Part shown: in pieces, positions 1-63,815 of the stretch
Numbering within the stretch: the stretch's first letter is position 1
How the letters are laid out: each line of letters starts with the position of its first letter
Virus record (IMG/VR): IMGVR_UViG_3300025018_000100
Length of the DNA: 64,000 bases
Strand: one strand, 5' to 3'
From: a virus
Made by a program: the position numbers and the translations under genes
The notes under the pieces: generated by a model
What the model was told of the DNA's origin: nothing
The model's input: only the letters and a program-made list of their open reading frames with translations
Databases searched by the model: none

Positions 1-361
1 GTCAGCTATAAGAATATGCGGAAAAGATACTCCTTATATGATTGAAAACCCTATAGGTGTAGTATCTACAATGTATAGAAAGTACGATTTCAACTTTAAT
101 CCTTGTGATTATGGTGGTTATTTGCCGGAGGATGATGTACATCCAGAATTTCCTGATTTAATTCCAGCAAGAGATAATTACACTAAAACAACTTGTTTAT
201 GGACAGGAAATGGATTTATAATACCAGAAAAGAAAAAGTTAAATATATTAAATAAAGGAAACGCCCATTACAATTCGGTTGGCGGTAAAAGCAAAAAAAC
301 AAAATATATAAGGTCTTTAAGTCCAAGAGGATTTTTTGTAGCCTTAGCGGAGATTTATTAA
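1..361 (+). CDS. DNA cytosine methyltransferase-like protein, C-terminal part (5' truncated by window)
   Basis: Frame open from position 2; IENP (ENV-like motif), YTKxTCLW and RSLSPRGF as in small phage Dcm-like proteins. Confidence 0.6.
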   Translation, partial: SAIRICGKDTPYMIENPIGVVSTMYRKYDFNFNPCDYGGYLPEDDVHPEFPDLIPARDNYTKTTCLWTGNGFIIPEKKKLNILNKGNAHYNSVGGKSKKTKYIRSLSPRGFFVALAEIY

Positions 362-11085: not shown

Positions 11086-12605
11086 TATGGTTTGTAAAAA
11101 GCGTTAATTATAATATACTCCCCCTCTATCATTGTTGTGTCTATAAATTGTATTGTATTATTTCCAGTGTTAAGTACCCACTCATTTTCAGGCTGAGCTA
11201 CCCCTCCTAAAAATATACTAACATACTCTGCACCGGGGATAGTACCTGGTGCACCTACAAAGTAAATATTGCTAGACGTAGAAGTAACTGTATTAGTCCA
11301 AGGAATTACATTAATAGTAGCACCAATAGAAGCAATATTATCTTGTAATACATTTAAATTAGCTGTTAAGCTAAGATAACTGTTGTAATCATTAGCCATA
11401 GCGGCGATATAAGTAGCATAGTCATTAGCTTTATATTCGGTTCCTAGTTGATTATATGTTGAAAAATCATTAGCTTTTGCAGAATTAAAGGTAGTTAAAT
11501 CATTAGCCATAGCTGCTAAATAAGTAACAACGTCATTAGCTCTGTAATCATTAGTTATTTGTGTATAAGTAGTATAATCATTTGCGTTAGCAAAAGTAAA
11601 AGTTATACTATCGTTAGCTTGATAATCTTGTCGTCTAGCTATATCATCAGCGCTTGTTAAAGGTCCTGTACCTAATCTAAATTTACTACCACTACCGCTT
11701 GCGTATACAATATTAGCTAATATTTGGTTATTGCTACCTGTTATTGCTAATCCTGCACCCTCTGCTGTAGCATCAGTACCGTTCCAGTTTACTGCAATAG
11801 TTGTATCTTCGCTAGTAACTGTTTCTGTATTAGCGGTAAAGCTATTTCCTTCAACAGTAACGTTACCTATAATAATAACATCACCCTGAAATATCTTTAG
11901 AGGGGCTGTAAATTCATCAGTCCCAGCTAAAATAGCATTATAAGTTGCAAAATCATTTGCATTAAATGAAGACTGTATATCAGAATATTCTTGACCATCA
12001 AGTAAATCAGCATTTAACCCACTACCTGGACCATCATTACCTTCATGCCAAATTACAGAACTACCACCAGAATAAGGACTAGTTCCGAATTCCCATCTGT
12101 TATTAGGTAAACTATAGGTTAACGCATTAGCGGTTTGTAGTACATTTTCTTTTTTAGGTATTAAATAAACCACCCCTAGATCATTAGTAATAATAGCTAT
12201 ACCGTTAGCAGAAGCACTATTAGCATTTTCTAATACTTCAAGACCTATACTATTAGGGGCTACTCTAATATCTAATGATCCAGTCATTACATCACCAGTT
12301 ACATTAACAAAATCATTAGTTACTTGAAGAAAAGTAGCATAGTCATTTGCAAGAGCAGCTTGATAAGTAAGATAATCATTAGCTTTAGATTGTAAAAACG
12401 TAGCAAAATCATTTGCTCTAAATGCATTAGTAGTAGTACTAACATTACTTTGCACTGCTGATACGTTAGCAGTTTCATCTAGTTTTGTTATGTCTATTGA
12501 ACCGTTAATATAGTGTCTATTTTCAATCTGATTAGATTGAATATTATAGCCCATAATGGTATTACTACTAATTACACTATTAGTTACTTTTGTTAAGTCT
12601 GACAT
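11085..12605 (-). CDS. Tail fibre protein with AND(F/Y) coiled-coil repeats
   Basis: IWHEGNDGPGSGLNADLLDG fibre motif; about a dozen AND-type repeats. Confidence 0.75.
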   Translation of the reverse strand: MSDLTKVTNSVISSNTIMGYNIQSNQIENRHYINGSIDITKLDETANVSAVQSNVSTTTNAFRANDFATFLQSKANDYLTYQAALANDYATFLQVTNDFVNVTGDVMTGSLDIRVAPNSIGLEVLENANSASANGIAIITNDLGVVYLIPKKENVLQTANALTYSLPNNRWEFGTSPYSGGSSVIWHEGNDGPGSGLNADLLDGQEYSDIQSSFNANDFATYNAILAGTDEFTAPLKIFQGDVIIIGNVTVEGNSFTANTETVTSEDTTIAVNWNGTDATAEGAGLAITGSNNQILANIVYASGSGSKFRLGTGPLTSADDIARRQDYQANDSITFTFANANDYTTYTQITNDYRANDVVTYLAAMANDLTTFNSAKANDFSTYNQLGTEYKANDYATYIAAMANDYNSYLSLTANLNVLQDNIASIGATINVIPWTNTVTSTSSNIYFVGAPGTIPGAEYVSIFLGGVAQPENEWVLNTGNNTIQFIDTTMIEGEYIIINAFYKP

Positions 12606-47208: not shown

Positions 47209-49641
47209 TTATCTCCCTAAAATAGGTGGAAGTTCGCCACCGCCTGCGATGTCAGCCATTGCGAGGTAGAGGTAAAGACCACCAGAGGCGTTCTTTCCAG
47301 AATGGGTTGTGCGAATTTTCACGCTGTCACCCAGCACGTCGATGTGGAACGCCGTGTTGTTTAGCTGCTCGTCCGCCGACGAGTTGGCGTAGATGGCGTC
47401 GTCGATCACATTGAACGGATTGCGAGCGGTGTCCTGCACTTGCCAGTCTTCCGTACCGCTATCCACCCGCTTAATAAGCACCCACCTTGGCGTGAACCCT
47501 AGCCAAATCATTGGCCCGTCAGCACTGCCGTTGCCCGTATACGAGCCAACCTTGCAGAGACCAGGGACGGAGCGGAAGGCGTAAGCTATGTGATTATTAG
47601 TGTTCTGATTGTTGTTACTATCAGTACCTAGCGTGATGACTGACCCATCTGGGGCGGTGGTGTTTAACCAACTAATGGCCCCGGCAAACCCCTTTGCCCC
47701 TGCCTGATCCAGCATTAAATAATCGGAATTACCGGCCCCTAATAAGATACAATAGACCACCCAATTTCTGGAAGTATCTCTGTTTTTGAAAATTATTAAA
47801 TCTGGTGCACCAGGTAAATCGTGCCCGATTGTGGCCCCCGCAGTGGCGTTGCCTTGATAACCAATTATACTGAAATGGCCCGCCACCGCTGCACTAACTG
47901 TACTGGTGATCGTTCCGTCGTTGTTGGTGACGCCAGCACCACCGGCTCGGAAGCCCCATCCGACATAAGTTGCGGCGCTATCATTGGCGTTGTTCGCATT
48001 GTTGATTGTAAACCCATCCGCGTCGTCGATGCTATCAAACCCGCCCTCAACTTGTTCGGCATTGGTCGAGTCTGAGTATATGACGTTGTTCACACCACGG
48101 ATCACGTCTTGGAGTTTATGGGACAATGCGGCAGATCGTTTTTTGTACCAGAGCAAGTCGCTGGCGAAACCCATTCCGGTAATGCCTCGGTCGTTTGTCG
48201 CGTTACCAGTCAACAGCAAGGAGTTGAACCAATCCGCACCTTGAGGGTCTGTGGCGAGACGACCGTTGTTCGCAACGCGCAAAGCCGAATACCCAGAACC
48301 AATAGGGTAAGTAAATTCGTCTTCAAAAACCAAGAATGTCCAATCATAGTTATTAAAACGTGCCACAACCGGAAAAAATTCAAGGGACGTATCAACGCCG
48401 GTTGAGGTGGTCTCAAGAACATTATTAATAAGCCACTGTATTTCTCCCGCATCTGCGTCATACCGAACAGTGACAACATCGTTTGCACTAAGTGCGGTGC
48501 CCCCAGTGTAAGGGGTAAGACTGGCGGCAGCAGTTACGTTCTGGACACTACCATTTTCACGATAAGCCCAAGCCTCATTAAACCCCACTGAAGACCCCCT
48601 TAATGCGTTATTCGAGGGGTTGGAAACCGCAAGCGCGGCATCATAGCAACAGATACCGACTGAGCCGTCACCGTTATTGGTTTTCACTTGAAATTCATAC
48701 TTACCTGTCTTGGGTAATGGGACGGACAAAAATGCGCCACCATCGCCACCGCCTGAACCTGTAACCCTGCGACCGCCCTCTAATGTTGTGATGGTCGATG
48801 AACTGGGCTGGATCAATATATCAACAACAGGCCCCAGTCTCGAAGGCGTGTCCGACGATCCATTGGCGGCATGGCTCATGCTTGTTGGCGTGAAGTCGTT
48901 CCCGTTCGCGCTTGCATCGGTGCCGTCGCCAATCTCGGAAGTCTGGCAGAAGCTATTCCCACCAGCCGTGTTAGCCTGAGCCACTAGTTTGGTGTCTGGT
49001 TGGGCGGCCCAGATAAGACCGTTATCACCCGCCGCCCACCACTGGCCTAAATCCTCAATAGTGAAATCTGCGCCTTGAATGGAAACACCGTCCAGGTAGG
49101 TGGCTTGGCTTATTCGGGCTGGGATTGGTTGGAAAGCTGCCCCGGCGCTATCAGGCCAAGCGCCCACAAACATATTCTGACCAGAAAGAGATATAGCCGC
49201 GCTAAAACCCAAGGTCGGGTAGGTTGCGGTATCAAAGACAGTCTCTTGCTCACCATTGATAAAAACTTTGATGCGGTCTGATGCAGTAGCTTGGTTAGTA
49301 TCTACGCTAACCACAATATGATACCAGTTAGTATCGCGGAATAGTCGTGTGGTGGTGAGCTGAAAACTAGTTGCGTTGAATTGAGCAAACTCAAACTTTT
49401 CATTGAAGAAGCGAGCCGTCACAGAAGATGGAACGTTTGCTGATCCAAAGAATGCAACATTGTTTCCAAAACCGGTGCGGCGCACCCAAAATGATAAGGC
49501 AAACTCCTGCCTGTTGCCGGTTGACCCTGGAGTCCATGATAAATAATCAGCCGATCCATCAAACCATGCGGATTGATCCACAGTTAAAGGGTTCCAACTA
49601 TTATTTGAAGCAGCTAAAACATTACTATTAAAAATACTCAT
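47209..49641 (-). CDS. LamG/concanavalin + SPRY-like virion protein, candidate receptor-binding protein (GC-rich)
   Basis: FDGSADYL, LSFWVRR, WYHIVVS LamG; GKYEFQV SPRY; repeated YTGNG...GFTP..V.IKR modules. Confidence 0.75.
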   Translation of the reverse strand: MSIFNSNVLAASNNSWNPLTVDQSAWFDGSADYLSWTPGSTGNRQEFALSFWVRRTGFGNNVAFFGSANVPSSVTARFFNEKFEFAQFNATSFQLTTTRLFRDTNWYHIVVSVDTNQATASDRIKVFINGEQETVFDTATYPTLGFSAAISLSGQNMFVGAWPDSAGAAFQPIPARISQATYLDGVSIQGADFTIEDLGQWWAAGDNGLIWAAQPDTKLVAQANTAGGNSFCQTSEIGDGTDASANGNDFTPTSMSHAANGSSDTPSRLGPVVDILIQPSSSTITTLEGGRRVTGSGGGDGGAFLSVPLPKTGKYEFQVKTNNGDGSVGICCYDAALAVSNPSNNALRGSSVGFNEAWAYRENGSVQNVTAAASLTPYTGGTALSANDVVTVRYDADAGEIQWLINNVLETTSTGVDTSLEFFPVVARFNNYDWTFLVFEDEFTYPIGSGYSALRVANNGRLATDPQGADWFNSLLLTGNATNDRGITGMGFASDLLWYKKRSAALSHKLQDVIRGVNNVIYSDSTNAEQVEGGFDSIDDADGFTINNANNANDSAATYVGWGFRAGGAGVTNNDGTITSTVSAAVAGHFSIIGYQGNATAGATIGHDLPGAPDLIIFKNRDTSRNWVVYCILLGAGNSDYLMLDQAGAKGFAGAISWLNTTAPDGSVITLGTDSNNNQNTNNHIAYAFRSVPGLCKVGSYTGNGSADGPMIWLGFTPRWVLIKRVDSGTEDWQVQDTARNPFNVIDDAIYANSSADEQLNNTAFHIDVLGDSVKIRTTHSGKNASGGLYLYLAMADIAGGGELPPILGR

Positions 49642-50552
49642 TAAACCATATCCTTAGCAGCAGTCAAATATACAGCTGTTCCATTAGATAAATAACTTAA
49701 TAAAGTTATTCCACTTGATAAAGTTAAACTACTTGTTTTAATGTTCCCGTCAATGCTAATATTATTAGCAGAAGTATTAATTAGCTCAATCCACCCAGAT
49801 TGTCCTATAGCATTAGAAATATTTGTAAAATTGATAGTTATATCTTCTGATACTACGCAAGTAAAATTTTGAGCAACATCTAAATTAAAATAACCTTGAT
49901 TATTGCTTGTAATGTTTACTCTTCCTTTATTTGCATACACAGTGCCCCACCTACTAGCTTCATTACCAAAATTAGAAGTTAGATTATTAGTAGGATTAAC
50001 GTTTCCTCCGATATTAATGTTATTCCCAATAGTTACATTCCCGTCAGAGGATAAATTGTTAGCAAAGTATCCTTCTCCTAGAGTATTAACCCAGAAAGTA
50101 GTATTATTTGTATCGTTCCCAATAAATCCAGAATAAAAATATGCATTTTGACTATACGTGTTAGACCCAGCACCAATTATTGTATTCGAAAAAGTAAAAG
50201 AAGGTGCGTGGAATACCGCGGCCATATTATGGTCTTGCTTAGGCTGAACAAATAATCTTTCGGCATCTAAACTAGCAAATCCAAAAATTCCTGTTCCTAA
50301 AGTCCATACAGCATCATTATCAAAATATACAAACCCAGAGTCTGATATTACAGTAGACCCTGTAATATTTAAATCCCCGACGGTAAAATCATTAGTAGAT
50401 ATAGAGGTTGAAAAAGTGTTACCTGTTACATGTAGATTAGCAGCAGGCGTGACTGTACCAACACCTACACGAACATTAGTTCTATCTACGTGTAGAATAC
50501 CTGTATTGTCAACACCGGTACCACCCATCTGTGTACTAATTCTCTGTACCAT
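49641..50552 (-). CDS. Fibre-like virion protein
   Basis: RVGVGTVTPAANLHVTGN; GNEASRWGTVYA motifs. Confidence 0.65.
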   Translation of the reverse strand: MVQRISTQMGGTGVDNTGILHVDRTNVRVGVGTVTPAANLHVTGNTFSTSISTNDFTVGDLNITGSTVISDSGFVYFDNDAVWTLGTGIFGFASLDAERLFVQPKQDHNMAAVFHAPSFTFSNTIIGAGSNTYSQNAYFYSGFIGNDTNNTTFWVNTLGEGYFANNLSSDGNVTIGNNINIGGNVNPTNNLTSNFGNEASRWGTVYANKGRVNITSNNQGYFNLDVAQNFTCVVSEDITINFTNISNAIGQSGWIELINTSANNISIDGNIKTSSLTLSSGITLLSYLSNGTAVYLTAAKDMV

Positions 50553-52590: not shown

Positions 52591-53139
52591 ATGACATGTA
52601 TAGTTGGGTTACGTAATGATAAAGGAGTTATACTGGCAGGAGATAGTGCCGGAGTTGAGGGATTCAACGTAACCATTAGAAAAGATAGTAAAGTTTTTAA
52701 GGTAAATAACATATTAATTGGATATACTAGTAGCTTTAGAATGGGACAAATTATACGTTATCATTTAGATATAACGTATAGTGGGGACGAAGATGAATAT
52801 GATTGGATGGTAACTGTTTTTATTCCTCATATAAGAAAAATTCTACAAGAGCATGGATTTACTAAAATAAATAATAACGAAGAGTCCGGAGGTGTCTTTC
52901 TCGTAGGAATTAATAATAGGTTATTTATAGTAGAATCAGATTTTCAAGTGGGAGAAAGTAATTTAGTATATGAGAGCGTAGGTTGTGGAGAAAAATATGC
53001 TAAAGGATATATTTATGCGGCTCTAGGAAATATTAATAATACAAGAACAGAAGAACAAATAGTAGAAGGTGCATTATACTGCGCTACTAACTTTAGTGCA
53101 GGTGTAAGACCTCCTTTTAACTTTATCAAGAACTATTAA
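52591..53139 (+). CDS. Ntn-hydrolase / HslV-like peptidase
   Basis: MTCIVG (Thr nucleophile), LAGDS, SKVF, SVGCGEKYA. Confidence 0.8.
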   Translation: MTCIVGLRNDKGVILAGDSAGVEGFNVTIRKDSKVFKVNNILIGYTSSFRMGQIIRYHLDITYSGDEDEYDWMVTVFIPHIRKILQEHGFTKINNNEESGGVFLVGINNRLFIVESDFQVGESNLVYESVGCGEKYAKGYIYAALGNINNTRTEEQIVEGALYCATNFSAGVRPPFNFIKNY

Positions 53140-57710: not shown

Positions 57711-57738
57711 AAAAGGGGAAGCAATTGCTTCCCCTTTT
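57711..57738. terminator. Bidirectional intrinsic terminator
   Basis: AAAAGGGGAAGCAATTGCTTCCCCTTTT. Confidence 0.85.
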
Positions 57739-57893
57739 CTTTATTCTTATTCTACACAAAACTTGTGTATTAGCACCGCCAGGAAACCTTCTCCTACCCC
57801 TGTAGGGTAACACGGTTTTACCATACTTGTAAAGCTAATTTTATTTCGTTGTTTATATTATTTGAGAAATATTATTAGCCAATAAAGGCACCG

Positions 57894-58198: not shown

Positions 58199-58849
58199 AT
58201 GGCAATTAAGAGCAACCACGCATTTTCCCGCACATTACGTAATCAATTGCGAGAAACCTTTAACAACGCGCAATGCGTTTATAAGGATATCCAGGACCAA
58301 GTACCGGCGCTCATTACCTTAGACAATGGGGAATTTGACCATATACTAGCGCGGGAATTTGCCTATTTGGAAAAGGATATGCAAGCGGCGATTAAGAATG
58401 CCGGTTATCCAAAAACACTTTGGCAAAATTTCGCTATCAATAGCCATGTTAATTGCGCGCGTGTTAGCGCGTCTGGGAATTGGCTAAAAGGACAACAAGA
58501 AAAGTCTTTGATGGTTATCAAACAAGATAACGCGGTGATTGTTCACGCCATGCGATATTTTGCGCGTGTATGGGGTCTTAACGGGAAAAGAAAAATTGTT
58601 CTCAAATCCGTCGCCAACAAAACAAAACATCTTGCAATCAAAGCAAACGAATATGAAGCGCTTTCCGTTCGTGCGGTACGCTTGGAACATACTAAAGGGG
58701 ATTTAGATAAATTTAGTATGTCTCACAATTGGATTAAAGAGGGGAAGGAATATAAAAGGCAAATTTTAAAATTCGGGGATGAAACTCCAGAAGCGAAAGC
58801 GCATTTAAAGAAAATGAAACAGACCATAAAGGAATACATGGTTTACTGA
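58199..58849 (+). CDS. HNH-like protein, higher GC
   Basis: EFDHIL...N....S..GNWLKG; AAGGA RBS; TTTACA-17 nt-TATTAT promoter. Confidence 0.55.
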   Translation: MAIKSNHAFSRTLRNQLRETFNNAQCVYKDIQDQVPALITLDNGEFDHILAREFAYLEKDMQAAIKNAGYPKTLWQNFAINSHVNCARVSASGNWLKGQQEKSLMVIKQDNAVIVHAMRYFARVWGLNGKRKIVLKSVANKTKHLAIKANEYEALSVRAVRLEHTKGDLDKFSMSHNWIKEGKEYKRQILKFGDETPEAKAHLKKMKQTIKEYMVY

Positions 58850-58852
58850 AAA

Positions 58853-58880
58853 ATATGGGGGGAAGCAATTCCCCCCATAT
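58853..58880. terminator. GCAA-tetraloop hairpin
   Basis: ATATGGGGGGAA-GCAA-TTCCCCCCATAT; U-run only on - strand. Confidence 0.7.
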
Positions 58881-58886
58881 ACCTAC

Positions 58887-59019
58887 CTGAATTGCGAATG
58901 ATTATCATTCCTGACTGAATTGCGAATGATTATCATTCCTGACTGAATTGCGAATGATTATCATTCCTGACTGAATTGCGAATGATTATCATTCCTGACT
59001 GAATTGCGAATGATTATCA
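58887..59019. repeat. Tandem array, 4.75 x 28 bp, each unit containing a Fur-box core
   Basis: Unit CTGAATTGCGAATGATTATCATTCCTGA at 58887, 58915, 58943, 58971, partial at 58999; AATGAT-T-ATCATT palindrome. Confidence 0.95.
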
Positions 59020-59045
59020 AGAGAAAAATAGTTAAAAATTTTTCT

Positions 59046-59120
59046 GCACCTGTACGAAATCGAAATAAAAAAGTGAGAAAGTAAGTGCCAAATTTAGATT
59101 TAGCACCTGTATGAAAACGA
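59046..59120 (+). repeat. 18-bp direct repeat pair
   Basis: GCACCTGTACGAAATCGA (59046) and GCACCTGTATGAAAACGA (59103). Confidence 0.8.
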
Positions 59121-59176
59121 CTAATTTTTGTATTAATTCTATCTCAAAAATAATGATATAAAATGAAAAATAATAG

Positions 59177-59205
59177 TTGACTAGTATTAATATAAAGACT
59201 ATATT
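59177..59205 (+). promoter_or_regulatory. Early sigma70 promoter
   Basis: TTGACT-17 nt-TATATT with A-rich UP element. Confidence 0.8.
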
Positions 59206-59237: not shown

Positions 59238-59441
59238 ATGTTTTACGAAAGAGTTACCAAAGTCACACAAGACTGGTTAAACACTCTCAGAAACAATGCT
59301 TCAAGAAAAGACTTTGTAGTTGGTTCTATGTGCGCTAAAATGGGACTAGCTTTAGCTACAGCGGAGAGAGCCCAAAAAAGTGACGATCTTAAGACAATAC
59401 AAGAGGATTTAGAAAGGATTATTAAAATCTTAGAGAAGTGA
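59238..59441 (+). CDS. Hypothetical early protein
   Basis: AAGGAG RBS, promoter and terminator. Confidence 0.75.
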   Translation: MFYERVTKVTQDWLNTLRNNASRKDFVVGSMCAKMGLALATAERAQKSDDLKTIQEDLERIIKILEK

Positions 59442-60439: not shown

Positions 60440-60496
60440 TTTCAATAGGTTAGGTGACGACCCGCCTACGGCGGGTTAGCGGCTAAACCATTGTTT
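60440..60496. repeat. 57-bp module, copy 3 (TAC loop)
   Basis: ACCCGCC TAC GGCGGGT; promoter TTGACG 60516 / TATATT 60539. Confidence 0.9.
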
Positions 60497-60571
60497 TTAA
60501 ACAATAATTTAGTTGTTGACGTAATACTTTTTAAGACTTATATTAATAACATAATTATTAGGAGAAAAAAT

Positions 60572-61129
60572 ATGCGAAGCCCTTTAGAATTAGTTAGCAT
60601 GCTTAATAGATGTGGTCTTATTAAGATCGGGGAAGGGTCTTATGCTGAGGTCTATGCTAAAAAGACAAAAGACTTTGCTTATAAAGTAGGTAATATGTAC
60701 CTTGATGAAAATGATGGTTGGTTTCAGTATGCTAAATTAGCAAAAAAGCATAGTGCTAATAATCCGTACTTCCCTGAAATTAGTTTTATTAGGGGATCTG
60801 CAAGGGCTTATATAGCTAAAATGGAATTTATTCCAAAAACGTTATTTGATATTAGAGACGGTGTTTATAATAAGTCATATGAAATTGATGATAGTTTATG
60901 GCAAGTATTTTACGAAGACAAAAATTCAACACTTGTACAAAAATTATATGAACAGAACCCAGAATTTTTTAAATTTTTAAAAGATGAAAAATTCTGGGAA
61001 GCTGTATCACTTATCAAGGAATATATGAAAGATTTTCCCGATATGGATTTAGATATACACGACCGTAATATAATGATAAGAGAAAACGGGCAAATAGTAA
61101 TTACAGACCCTTACCTAGAAGGGTATTAA
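60572..61129 (+). CDS. Ser/Thr protein kinase-like (T7 gp0.7-like kinase domain), paralog 1
   Basis: IGEGSYAEVY, AYKV, MEFI, DIHDRNIM, VITDP; AGGAG RBS before ATG 60572. Confidence 0.8.
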   Translation: MRSPLELVSMLNRCGLIKIGEGSYAEVYAKKTKDFAYKVGNMYLDENDGWFQYAKLAKKHSANNPYFPEISFIRGSARAYIAKMEFIPKTLFDIRDGVYNKSYEIDDSLWQVFYEDKNSTLVQKLYEQNPEFFKFLKDEKFWEAVSLIKEYMKDFPDMDLDIHDRNIMIRENGQIVITDPYLEGY

Positions 61130-63218: not shown

Positions 63219-63815
63219 ATGAGTGTACGAAAAATAGTGAAACGACTAAGAAAAACAGGATTAGTACGTATTGGTGAAGGCTCTTTCGGAGTAGCAGTTG
63301 CACCTGAAAGTAGAGAATATGTGTACAAAATTGGAAGTATTAATAATCTCTTAGATGGTTGGTACTATTTTGGACAATTAGCTATGTTGCATAGTGATAA
63401 TCCTTATTTTCCTAAAATTGAAAAACTCCAAGGAACCTCACAAGCATATGTTGCTAAAATGGAATATATACCCTCAGAAGTTACAACATCGGCGTCAATA
63501 AAGTGGGAATTAGGAGACTATATTAAAAACTGGTTATCTCCTACGGATGAATATAGTACAGAATGGTATAAAAAAGACAGTGATTTTATAAAAAGTTTTC
63601 CATTCACTGCTGATCCACTATTTTGTGACGCACTTTCAATTATGAGTTTTTATCTTGAAGATATTAAACGTGAGTTAGGAATAAATATATACTTTGATAT
63701 ACATGAAGGTAATTTTAGATGTAGGGAAGATGGACAGTTAGTAATTATTGATCCATTTGCTATTGAAGAAACAGATAGCTACTCAGGAATGTCTGAGTCT
63801 TGGTTCTGGGCCTAA
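63219..63815 (+). CDS. Ser/Thr protein kinase-like, paralog 2
   Basis: IGEGSFG, VYKI, NPYFP, AKMEYIP, DIHEGNF, VIIDP. Confidence 0.8.
   Translation: MSVRKIVKRLRKTGLVRIGEGSFGVAVAPESREYVYKIGSINNLLDGWYYFGQLAMLHSDNPYFPKIEKLQGTSQAYVAKMEYIPSEVTTSASIKWELGDYIKNWLSPTDEYSTEWYKKDSDFIKSFPFTADPLFCDALSIMSFYLEDIKRELGINIYFDIHEGNFRCREDGQLVIIDPFAIEETDSYSGMSESWFWA

Follow-up and report, generated by a model that had tools for sequence, protein, structure and literature searches.

A tandem array of predicted Fur boxes in a distantly T5-like phage, probably a decoy or recruitment site for host Fur

The datA locus of Escherichia coli soaks up DnaA, and the Fur titration assay (FURTA) relies on titration by multicopy Fur boxes. 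Both embody the mechanism that we propose below, in which numerous high-affinity sites, multiplied as their DNA replicates, deplete the free regulator and so relieve repression of the genes under its control. FURTA, whose use is mentioned in PMC2189734, is a laboratory assay, however, and datA is a chromosomal locus, whereas the array described here is phage-borne. Among the known systems closest to it is the sfuC operator of Pelagibacter/SAR11, which precedes the gene for the Fe(III)-binding protein of the sfuABC transporter, together with the alphaproteobacterial Fur/Mur boxes (Rodionov et al. 2006, PMC1698941). Among the genes of SAR11, sfuC is the one most induced by iron starvation, with 16-fold induction of the mRNA and 27-fold induction of the protein under iron limitation (Smith et al., PMC2864753), and it has been proposed as an iron-stress marker.

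Bacteriophage T5 provides the closest comparison on the viral side. The injection stop signal of T5 is held in the untranslated Repeat Region 3, with its direct repeats DRC1-4 and palindromes E-I, and this repeat region borders the 7.9% nick and the shear point, where the terminal repeat has its inner edge (Davison, bioRxiv 10.1101/866236). DnaA boxes are named in that analysis, but Fur is never mentioned. Our literature search found no paper linking Fur boxes with T5-like phages, and none describing Fur-box arrays in phages or a natural phage-borne Fur decoy.

The array and its genomic setting

The array lies in a 64,000-nucleotide stretch of DNA from an uncultured ocean phage, hereafter the window, with a GC content of 28-37% over most of its length. 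The plus strand encodes, at 0.7-9 kb, a Mre11-type phosphoesterase, a PDDEXK nuclease, a flap endonuclease, RNase H, dUTPase and ThyX; the minus strand, at 9.5-52 kb, carries terminase, portal, protease/head, major tail and tail-fibre genes; and the plus strand at 52.6-64 kb is occupied by small genes without families. Identity of the terminase is 40% to its counterparts in Demerecviridae (the T5 family) and 60-66% to those in uncultured aquatic contigs. Judged from its genes, the window phage is distantly T5-like. Since the window has the T5 gene order, a collapsed terminal repeat carrying pre-early genes would be expected in the block of small genes. The array could therefore occupy a special position, for instance within such a repeat. 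A tblastn search for homologues of T5 A1, A2 and dmp found none in the window.

Several other features of this genome deserve mention. The gene that opens the block of small genes on the plus strand (52591-53139) has a marginal match to the Pfam Proteasome subunit family, with an E value of 8e-5, just above the cut-off, and its product may be an HslV-like peptidase. Two ORFs farther along the window, at 60491-61129 and 63219-63815, match a PHROG of the T7 gp0.7-type protein kinase / host transcription inhibitor. A minus-strand late gene contains a 111-bp tandem duplication (11387-11600, 1.9 copies, 74% matches), and GC content rises up to 46%, against ~32% elsewhere, at 48001-50000, inside an 810-aa virion/tail-fibre gene (47209-49641); this stretch may be a recently acquired host-recognition module.

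As detected by Tandem Repeats Finder, the array consists of a 28-bp unit repeated 4.75 times in tandem at 58887-59019 (period 28, 4.8 copies, 100% matches, no indels), that is, four full units and one truncated, and TTGCGAATGATTATCA opens all five copies (Table 1). This bears out an earlier note on this DNA, which had described four identical 28-bp units plus a partial one. Each of the four full copies contains a perfect 15-bp palindrome, GAATGAT-T-ATCATTC, and the fifth ends after ...ATCA. Within the 64-kb window this palindrome is confined to the array, with four sites on both strands against 0.26 expected from shuffles. In addition, TTGCGAATGATTATCA harbors a 7-1-7 word, TGCGAAT-G-ATTATCA, agreeing at 12 of 14 positions with the Fur 7-1-7 consensus word, TGATAAT-N-ATTATCA. 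The exact unit had no match in IMG/VR or JGI metagenome contigs. While the array itself is confirmed as a real sequence feature, its copy number, known from one assembly, could be an assembly product.

Table 1. Features in and around the array (positions in the window; strand where assigned)
Feature	Positions	Strand	Source
Upstream gene, 216 aa, orphan, without family or homologue	58199-58849	+	
G+C-rich hairpin just 5' of the array, T-run on the minus-strand side	58853-58880		
Tandem array, 28-bp unit x 4.75, copies identical	58887-59019		TRF, sequence, repeat family D1
Box 1, 23-mer with 15-bp perfect palindrome; 19/23 identical to SAR11 sfuC operator	58892-58914		
Box 2, same as box 1	58920-58942		
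Box 3, same as box 1	58948-58970		
Box 4, same as box 1	58976-58998		
Box 5, truncated: 16-nt left part (7-1-7 register) kept, right palindrome arm gone	59004-59019		
AT-rich gene-free spacer with 18-bp direct repeat pair (59046-59063 and 59103-59120)	59020-59176		sequence, repeat family D17
Strong sigma-70-type promoter of next gene cassette, ~160 bp from the array	59177-59205	+	
Downstream gene, 67 aa, without family	59238-59441	+	

The array sits in a 389-bp gene-free gap between the 216-aa and 67-aa genes. It contains no sigma-70-like promoter scoring at least 9/12, the nearest to it being TTGACT-17-TATATT downstream, and the earlier statement that it overlaps no evident promoter therefore holds. 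At the same threshold, the array lacks a promoter overlapping or just preceding the boxes, as is found in Fur-repressed genes. The hairpin at 58853-58880 would terminate the 216-aa gene, and would halt leftward transcripts too. It is near-identical to a second G+C-rich hairpin at 57711-57738 (both of the GGGGAAGCAATT... type); the two close both genes preceding the array, and they look like a shared terminator module. The repeat pair in the downstream spacer has the sequence GCACCTGTA.GAAA.CGA, its copies are 57 bp apart, and a related third word occurs at 57770 (families D17 and D19). Neither the flanking DNA nor the flanking genes had relatives in megablast and tblastn searches against cultured phages, in IMG/VR pattern searches, or in a search of 5.8 billion proteins. 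We detected no FUR or HTH domain in 26 phage ORFs near the array, and the array region gave no Rfam match.

Operator identity and the likely host

The earlier note had called the units Fur boxes, but similarity to the consensus alone is not significant. While the unit agrees with the classical 19-bp Fur consensus at 14 of 19 positions, scores of at least 14/19 occur at 21 positions of the window (3-13 in simulated sequence), and such a match, being frequent in the AT-rich window, does not establish a Fur box. The identification stands instead on the genes that the word precedes in bacteria. We scanned one genome per species, 185,579 species in all, for the core with either flank, which yielded at least 120 loci. 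Among the matches listed, the core sites are intergenic, 39 of 120 are full 19-bp palindromes, and ~40 of the 149 ORFs starting within 350 bp of these sites come from metal-uptake families, namely ZnuA/SitA (10), Peripla_BP_2 (6), CobW (5), Fe(III)-type substrate-binding proteins (SBPs, 5), TonB receptors (4), HisI (4), FeoA (3), siderophore oxygenase (3), FUR (2) and HemB (2). The core thus precedes, among these matches, genes for iron, manganese and zinc uptake, and a neighborhood mixing the Fur, Mur and Zur regulons identifies it as a putative Fur-family operator.

The flanks are informative as well. Sites flanked by TTGCG, as in the window, belong, among the matches listed, to Alphaproteobacteria, where they are located beside FbpA-type SBPs, SitA/ZnuA and TonB receptors. 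One of them, found in Amylibacter before a SitA/ZnuA gene, has 21 of 21 nt in common with the phage unit. The same class of 15-bp core palindrome stands ahead of genes for the import of iron and manganese in SAR11, SAR116, Caulobacter, Stellaceae, Amylibacter and Loktanella. By this comparison, the TTGCG... flank of the window is the alphaproteobacterial form of the box, and the identification of the array units as predicted Fur-family operators, four complete and one truncated, is supported. An identity of 26 consecutive nt was seen with an operator before an FbpA-type gene in the metagenome-assembled genome of a high-GC proteobacterium (locus L157, 4520-4555), and it takes in 9 nt of left flank beyond the searched pattern. 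This organism is ruled out as a host by its GC content of 65-70%, and we take the 26-nt identity as an extended motif or chance.

Our comparison with SAR11 genomes points to a specific bacterial counterpart. At up to three mismatches, a 20-mer from the window was found in 24 of 101 Pelagibacteraceae genomes, with 36 matches against nine for the reversed control. The recurrent site is a 23-bp near-palindrome, present once per genome and located 33-52 bp upstream of a gene encoding a 338-aa FbpA-type SBP. The locus reads aceA (isocitrate lyase), small ORF, box, FbpA-type SBP, an order that is that of SAR11_1240-1238 and consequently identifies the SBP gene as sfuC (SAR11_1238). The phage unit and the SAR11 sfuC operator are identical over their first 16 nt and at 19 of 23 positions overall, the differences being in the right arm, where four of the last seven positions of the phage unit are unlike the SAR11 operator. 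The right arm of the unit is also less symmetric (16/23 self-complementary, against 20/23 for the operator). Moreover, the bacterial site is a single copy 33-52 bp before the gene that it controls, whereas in the phage five copies stand in tandem, unaccompanied by a gene or promoter. Exactly one zero-mismatch core is present in each of five SAR11 genomes. At up to two mismatches, matches were found in seven of 101 SAR11 genomes but in only three of 101 genomes of Rhodobacterales, which are much larger. The operator loci in SAR11 have a GC content of 29-31%, in keeping with the 28-37% of most of the window, and this match, combined with the operator likeness, leads us to infer a SAR11-type or similar low-GC marine alphaproteobacterium as the host.

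Box arrays in T5 and other phages

The earlier note had also linked the array to the T5 injection-stop region, and this link is real as far as the boxes go. The DRC1-4 repeats and palindromes E-I of T5 are composed of the same word class as the window array, with one T5 15-mer being a single base away from the window palindrome. Across the entire T5 record, clusters of the word are found only in Repeat Region 3 and its copy in the right repeat (control, 0). In the related phages phiR2-01, My1 and KEY, the box class is almost restricted to the injection-stop region, and a close T5 relative in IMG/VR exhibits the same confinement. Repeat Region 3 of T5 and its relatives has clusters of four to nine boxes of this class, limited to that region, in the untranslated DNA of T5-type phages. 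However, the boxes of T5 have diverged flanks, irregular spacing and a match to E. coli-type Fur sites, while those of the window are of the alphaproteobacterial type and form identical units. In the window we found neither the paired DnaA boxes of T5 (IRD'-spacer-IRC') nor its DRD repeats and nick site: DnaA boxes number eight, against 8.3 expected, with no pair near the array, and no DRD-type word was found above chance. It is in these respects, and in the absence of the array from the nearest relatives of the window phage and from a Vibrio phage (see below), that the case departs from the T5 injection-stop region.

The word in each phage resembles the operators of its own known or presumed kind of host. 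A T5 19-mer searched in E. coli K-12 with up to three mismatches was found in 13 places, against 0 for the control. Six were inspected, in the promoters of gpmA, ryhB, sufA, nfeF (yqjH) and fecI and before nohD in prophage DLP12, and all six are Fur operators; the Fur sites of gpmA, ryhB and nohA have been confirmed by Chen et al. (PMC2189734), that of nohA by gel shift. By comparison, the window 19-mer has almost no matches in E. coli, and blastn with the array against E. coli genomes gave no match at that database size. A looser 6-3-6 pattern with two mismatches proved too noisy in E. coli K-12 (170 matches vs. 83 for the control). That the boxes differ with the host, between T5 and the window phage, makes a host protein a simpler explanation than a phage protein. 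The site in the cryptic prophage DLP12, a strong Fur-type box at 580592-610 of E. coli K-12 (NC_000913.3), lies between ylcI and the packaging gene nohD. It parallels the nohA site, so that temperate phage remnants too have Fur boxes beside packaging genes.

Among phages, the boxes are patchily distributed. A complete 173-kb relative of the window phage (G001) has no box, a second (G002) has one, three more relatives have none, and none is present in Pontus, a Vibrio phage that belongs to the T5 family. With the closest relatives and a T5-like Vibrio phage devoid of it, the array is not a universal part of the injection stop. The single box of G002, whose terminase is ~60% identical to that of the window phage, is of the alphaproteobacterial type (TGCGAATGATTCTCATTTGCA; L082, 8255-8295) and lies in a region of small-gene cassettes, where it closely follows a promoter-like TTGTCA...TATATG. 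Unrelated phages have arrays of this box too, among them myophages of the phi92/phAPEC8-like and phiTE-like kinds and several uncultured contigs, in which the direct repeats measure 41-50 bp. These virulent phages carry several boxes in gene-free repeat regions. They have no detectable proteins in common with the window phage, and their boxes have the GAG flank typical of gamma-, betaproteobacterial or cyanobacterial sites. In phAPEC8, phiTE and alia (L100 2300-2500, L101 2300-2500 and L104 2300-2480), the Fur-box cluster invariably comes after a conserved stretch rich in G+C and a promoter-like site, and further short direct repeats lie beyond it; no match to an Rfam family was found. A distribution this patchy and convergent is more in keeping with an accessory device than with an entry signal that the phage could not do without.

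Possible functions of the array

Taken together, these comparisons suggest that the array is probably a decoy or recruitment site for host Fur. Binding itself is the firmer part, and we consider it likely that host Fur occupies the array. That the array then acts as a decoy is a serious possibility, which we rate somewhat short of even. In such a scheme, iron-loaded dimers of host Fur would bind the boxes, and each copy of the phage genome would add four to five competitors of top affinity against the single perfect SAR11-type site of the host. As phage DNA replicates, the array would pull Fur from the host operator, repression of sfuCBA would be lifted, and iron import into the infected cell would be raised. 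Tandem duplication of one unit would be the simplest route to a higher dose, and the perfect identity of the copies fits a recent amplification for dose. A decoy is favored by the contrast between one top site in the host and four to five per phage genome, by the identical copies, by the lack of an attached promoter or gene, and by the fact that the site copied is that of the chief iron-uptake gene. That the nearest relatives are without it is what one would expect if the array were accessory and not essential.

In the main rival reading, host Fur would instead be recruited for a structural purpose, as a nucleoprotein block or anchor that stops or pauses DNA entry, acts as a roadblock to transcription or replication where the first-entering DNA ends, or serves there as an iron checkpoint on whether infection proceeds. 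The boxes of the T5 injection-stop region would share this role. We regard this as rather unlikely for the window phage, although several observations speak for it. In T5, phiR2-01, My1 and KEY, the boxes are almost restricted to the untranslated repeats that line this inner edge of the terminally repeated DNA, and the window array directly follows a terminator hairpin, between two gene blocks and before a run of strong-promoter cassettes. In addition, T5 destroys host DNA within minutes. The same boxes in T5 consequently cannot work through de-repression of host genes, which would make no sense there, and a different, shared function is possible. However, an essential entry signal should be conserved, whereas G001 and Pontus have no box and G002 a single one, and the window shows neither enrichment of DnaA boxes nor DRD-type repeats. 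A Fur sponge suits the window phage somewhat better than an anchor. If Fur bound at the array acted on a nearby promoter, repressing or activating it, the boxes would make neighboring phage genes responsive to iron, much as pho boxes do for cyanophage pstS. The last copy and its flank indeed form a weak promoter-like TTGCGA-17-AATAGT (8/12), the single box of G002 is just downstream of a promoter-like site, and Fur sites upstream of promoters can activate, e.g., at ftnA in E. coli. Such local control is nonetheless improbable, since no promoter of at least 9/12 overlies the array, the strong promoter is ~160-290 bp off, neither neighboring ORF is linked to metals, and one or two boxes would suffice, which leaves five identical copies unexplained.

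Two further readings dispense with Fur, and we give both very little weight. The repeats might be sites for a phage-encoded protein, whether replication-origin iterons by an AT-rich stretch, a partition site or repressor operators. Tandem palindromes followed by ~200 bp of AT-rich DNA do recall the layout of the lambda ori, where iterons lie beside AT-rich DNA. But the word is identical to operators of host metal regulons and changes with the host between T5 and the window phage, it is common to unrelated phages that have no proteins in common, and no initiator or DNA-binding domain was detected in 26 nearby ORFs. Alternatively, the array could act as RNA, for example as a tandem-repeat mimic of an antitoxin (cf. 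the pseudo-ToxI of phage phiTE), or be a neutral minisatellite or an assembly artefact. A weak leftward promoter (59225-59198), the array and the hairpin with its minus-strand T-run could frame a ~330-nt transcript, and the fold has a z-score of -6. This score is a trivial consequence of the palindromes and the terminator, however, no toxin gene is nearby, and in other phages the word has varying flanks and spacings, as expected for protein sites; with no Rfam match besides, we set the RNA reading aside as uninformative. Perfect identity of the copies would fit recent slippage in a neutral repeat, but recurrence of the word across unrelated phages does not.

Three points are new here: the box takes a marine, alphaproteobacterial form, it comes close to identity with the operator of SAR11 sfuC, and by our comparison it tracks the host, a behavior expected of a site for a host factor. 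This case adds a marine, alphaproteobacterial example to a pattern that extends across several unrelated phage groups, and it makes Fur a concrete candidate for the protein acting at the long-unexplained injection-stop repeats of T5. More tentatively, we propose that a phage of the most abundant ocean bacteria may decoy Fur with copies of the main iron-uptake operator, and that promoter-less arrays may be an undescribed device, convergently evolved in virulent phages (T5-like, phi92-like and marine), for taking hold of a global regulator of the host. Soaking up Fur would, if it occurs, switch on iron import in infected cells. Iron limits growth across large areas of the ocean, and SAR11 are the most abundant marine bacteria, whose iron uptake infection could change; the fivefold copy of the sfuC operator offers a testable route from infection to altered iron uptake.
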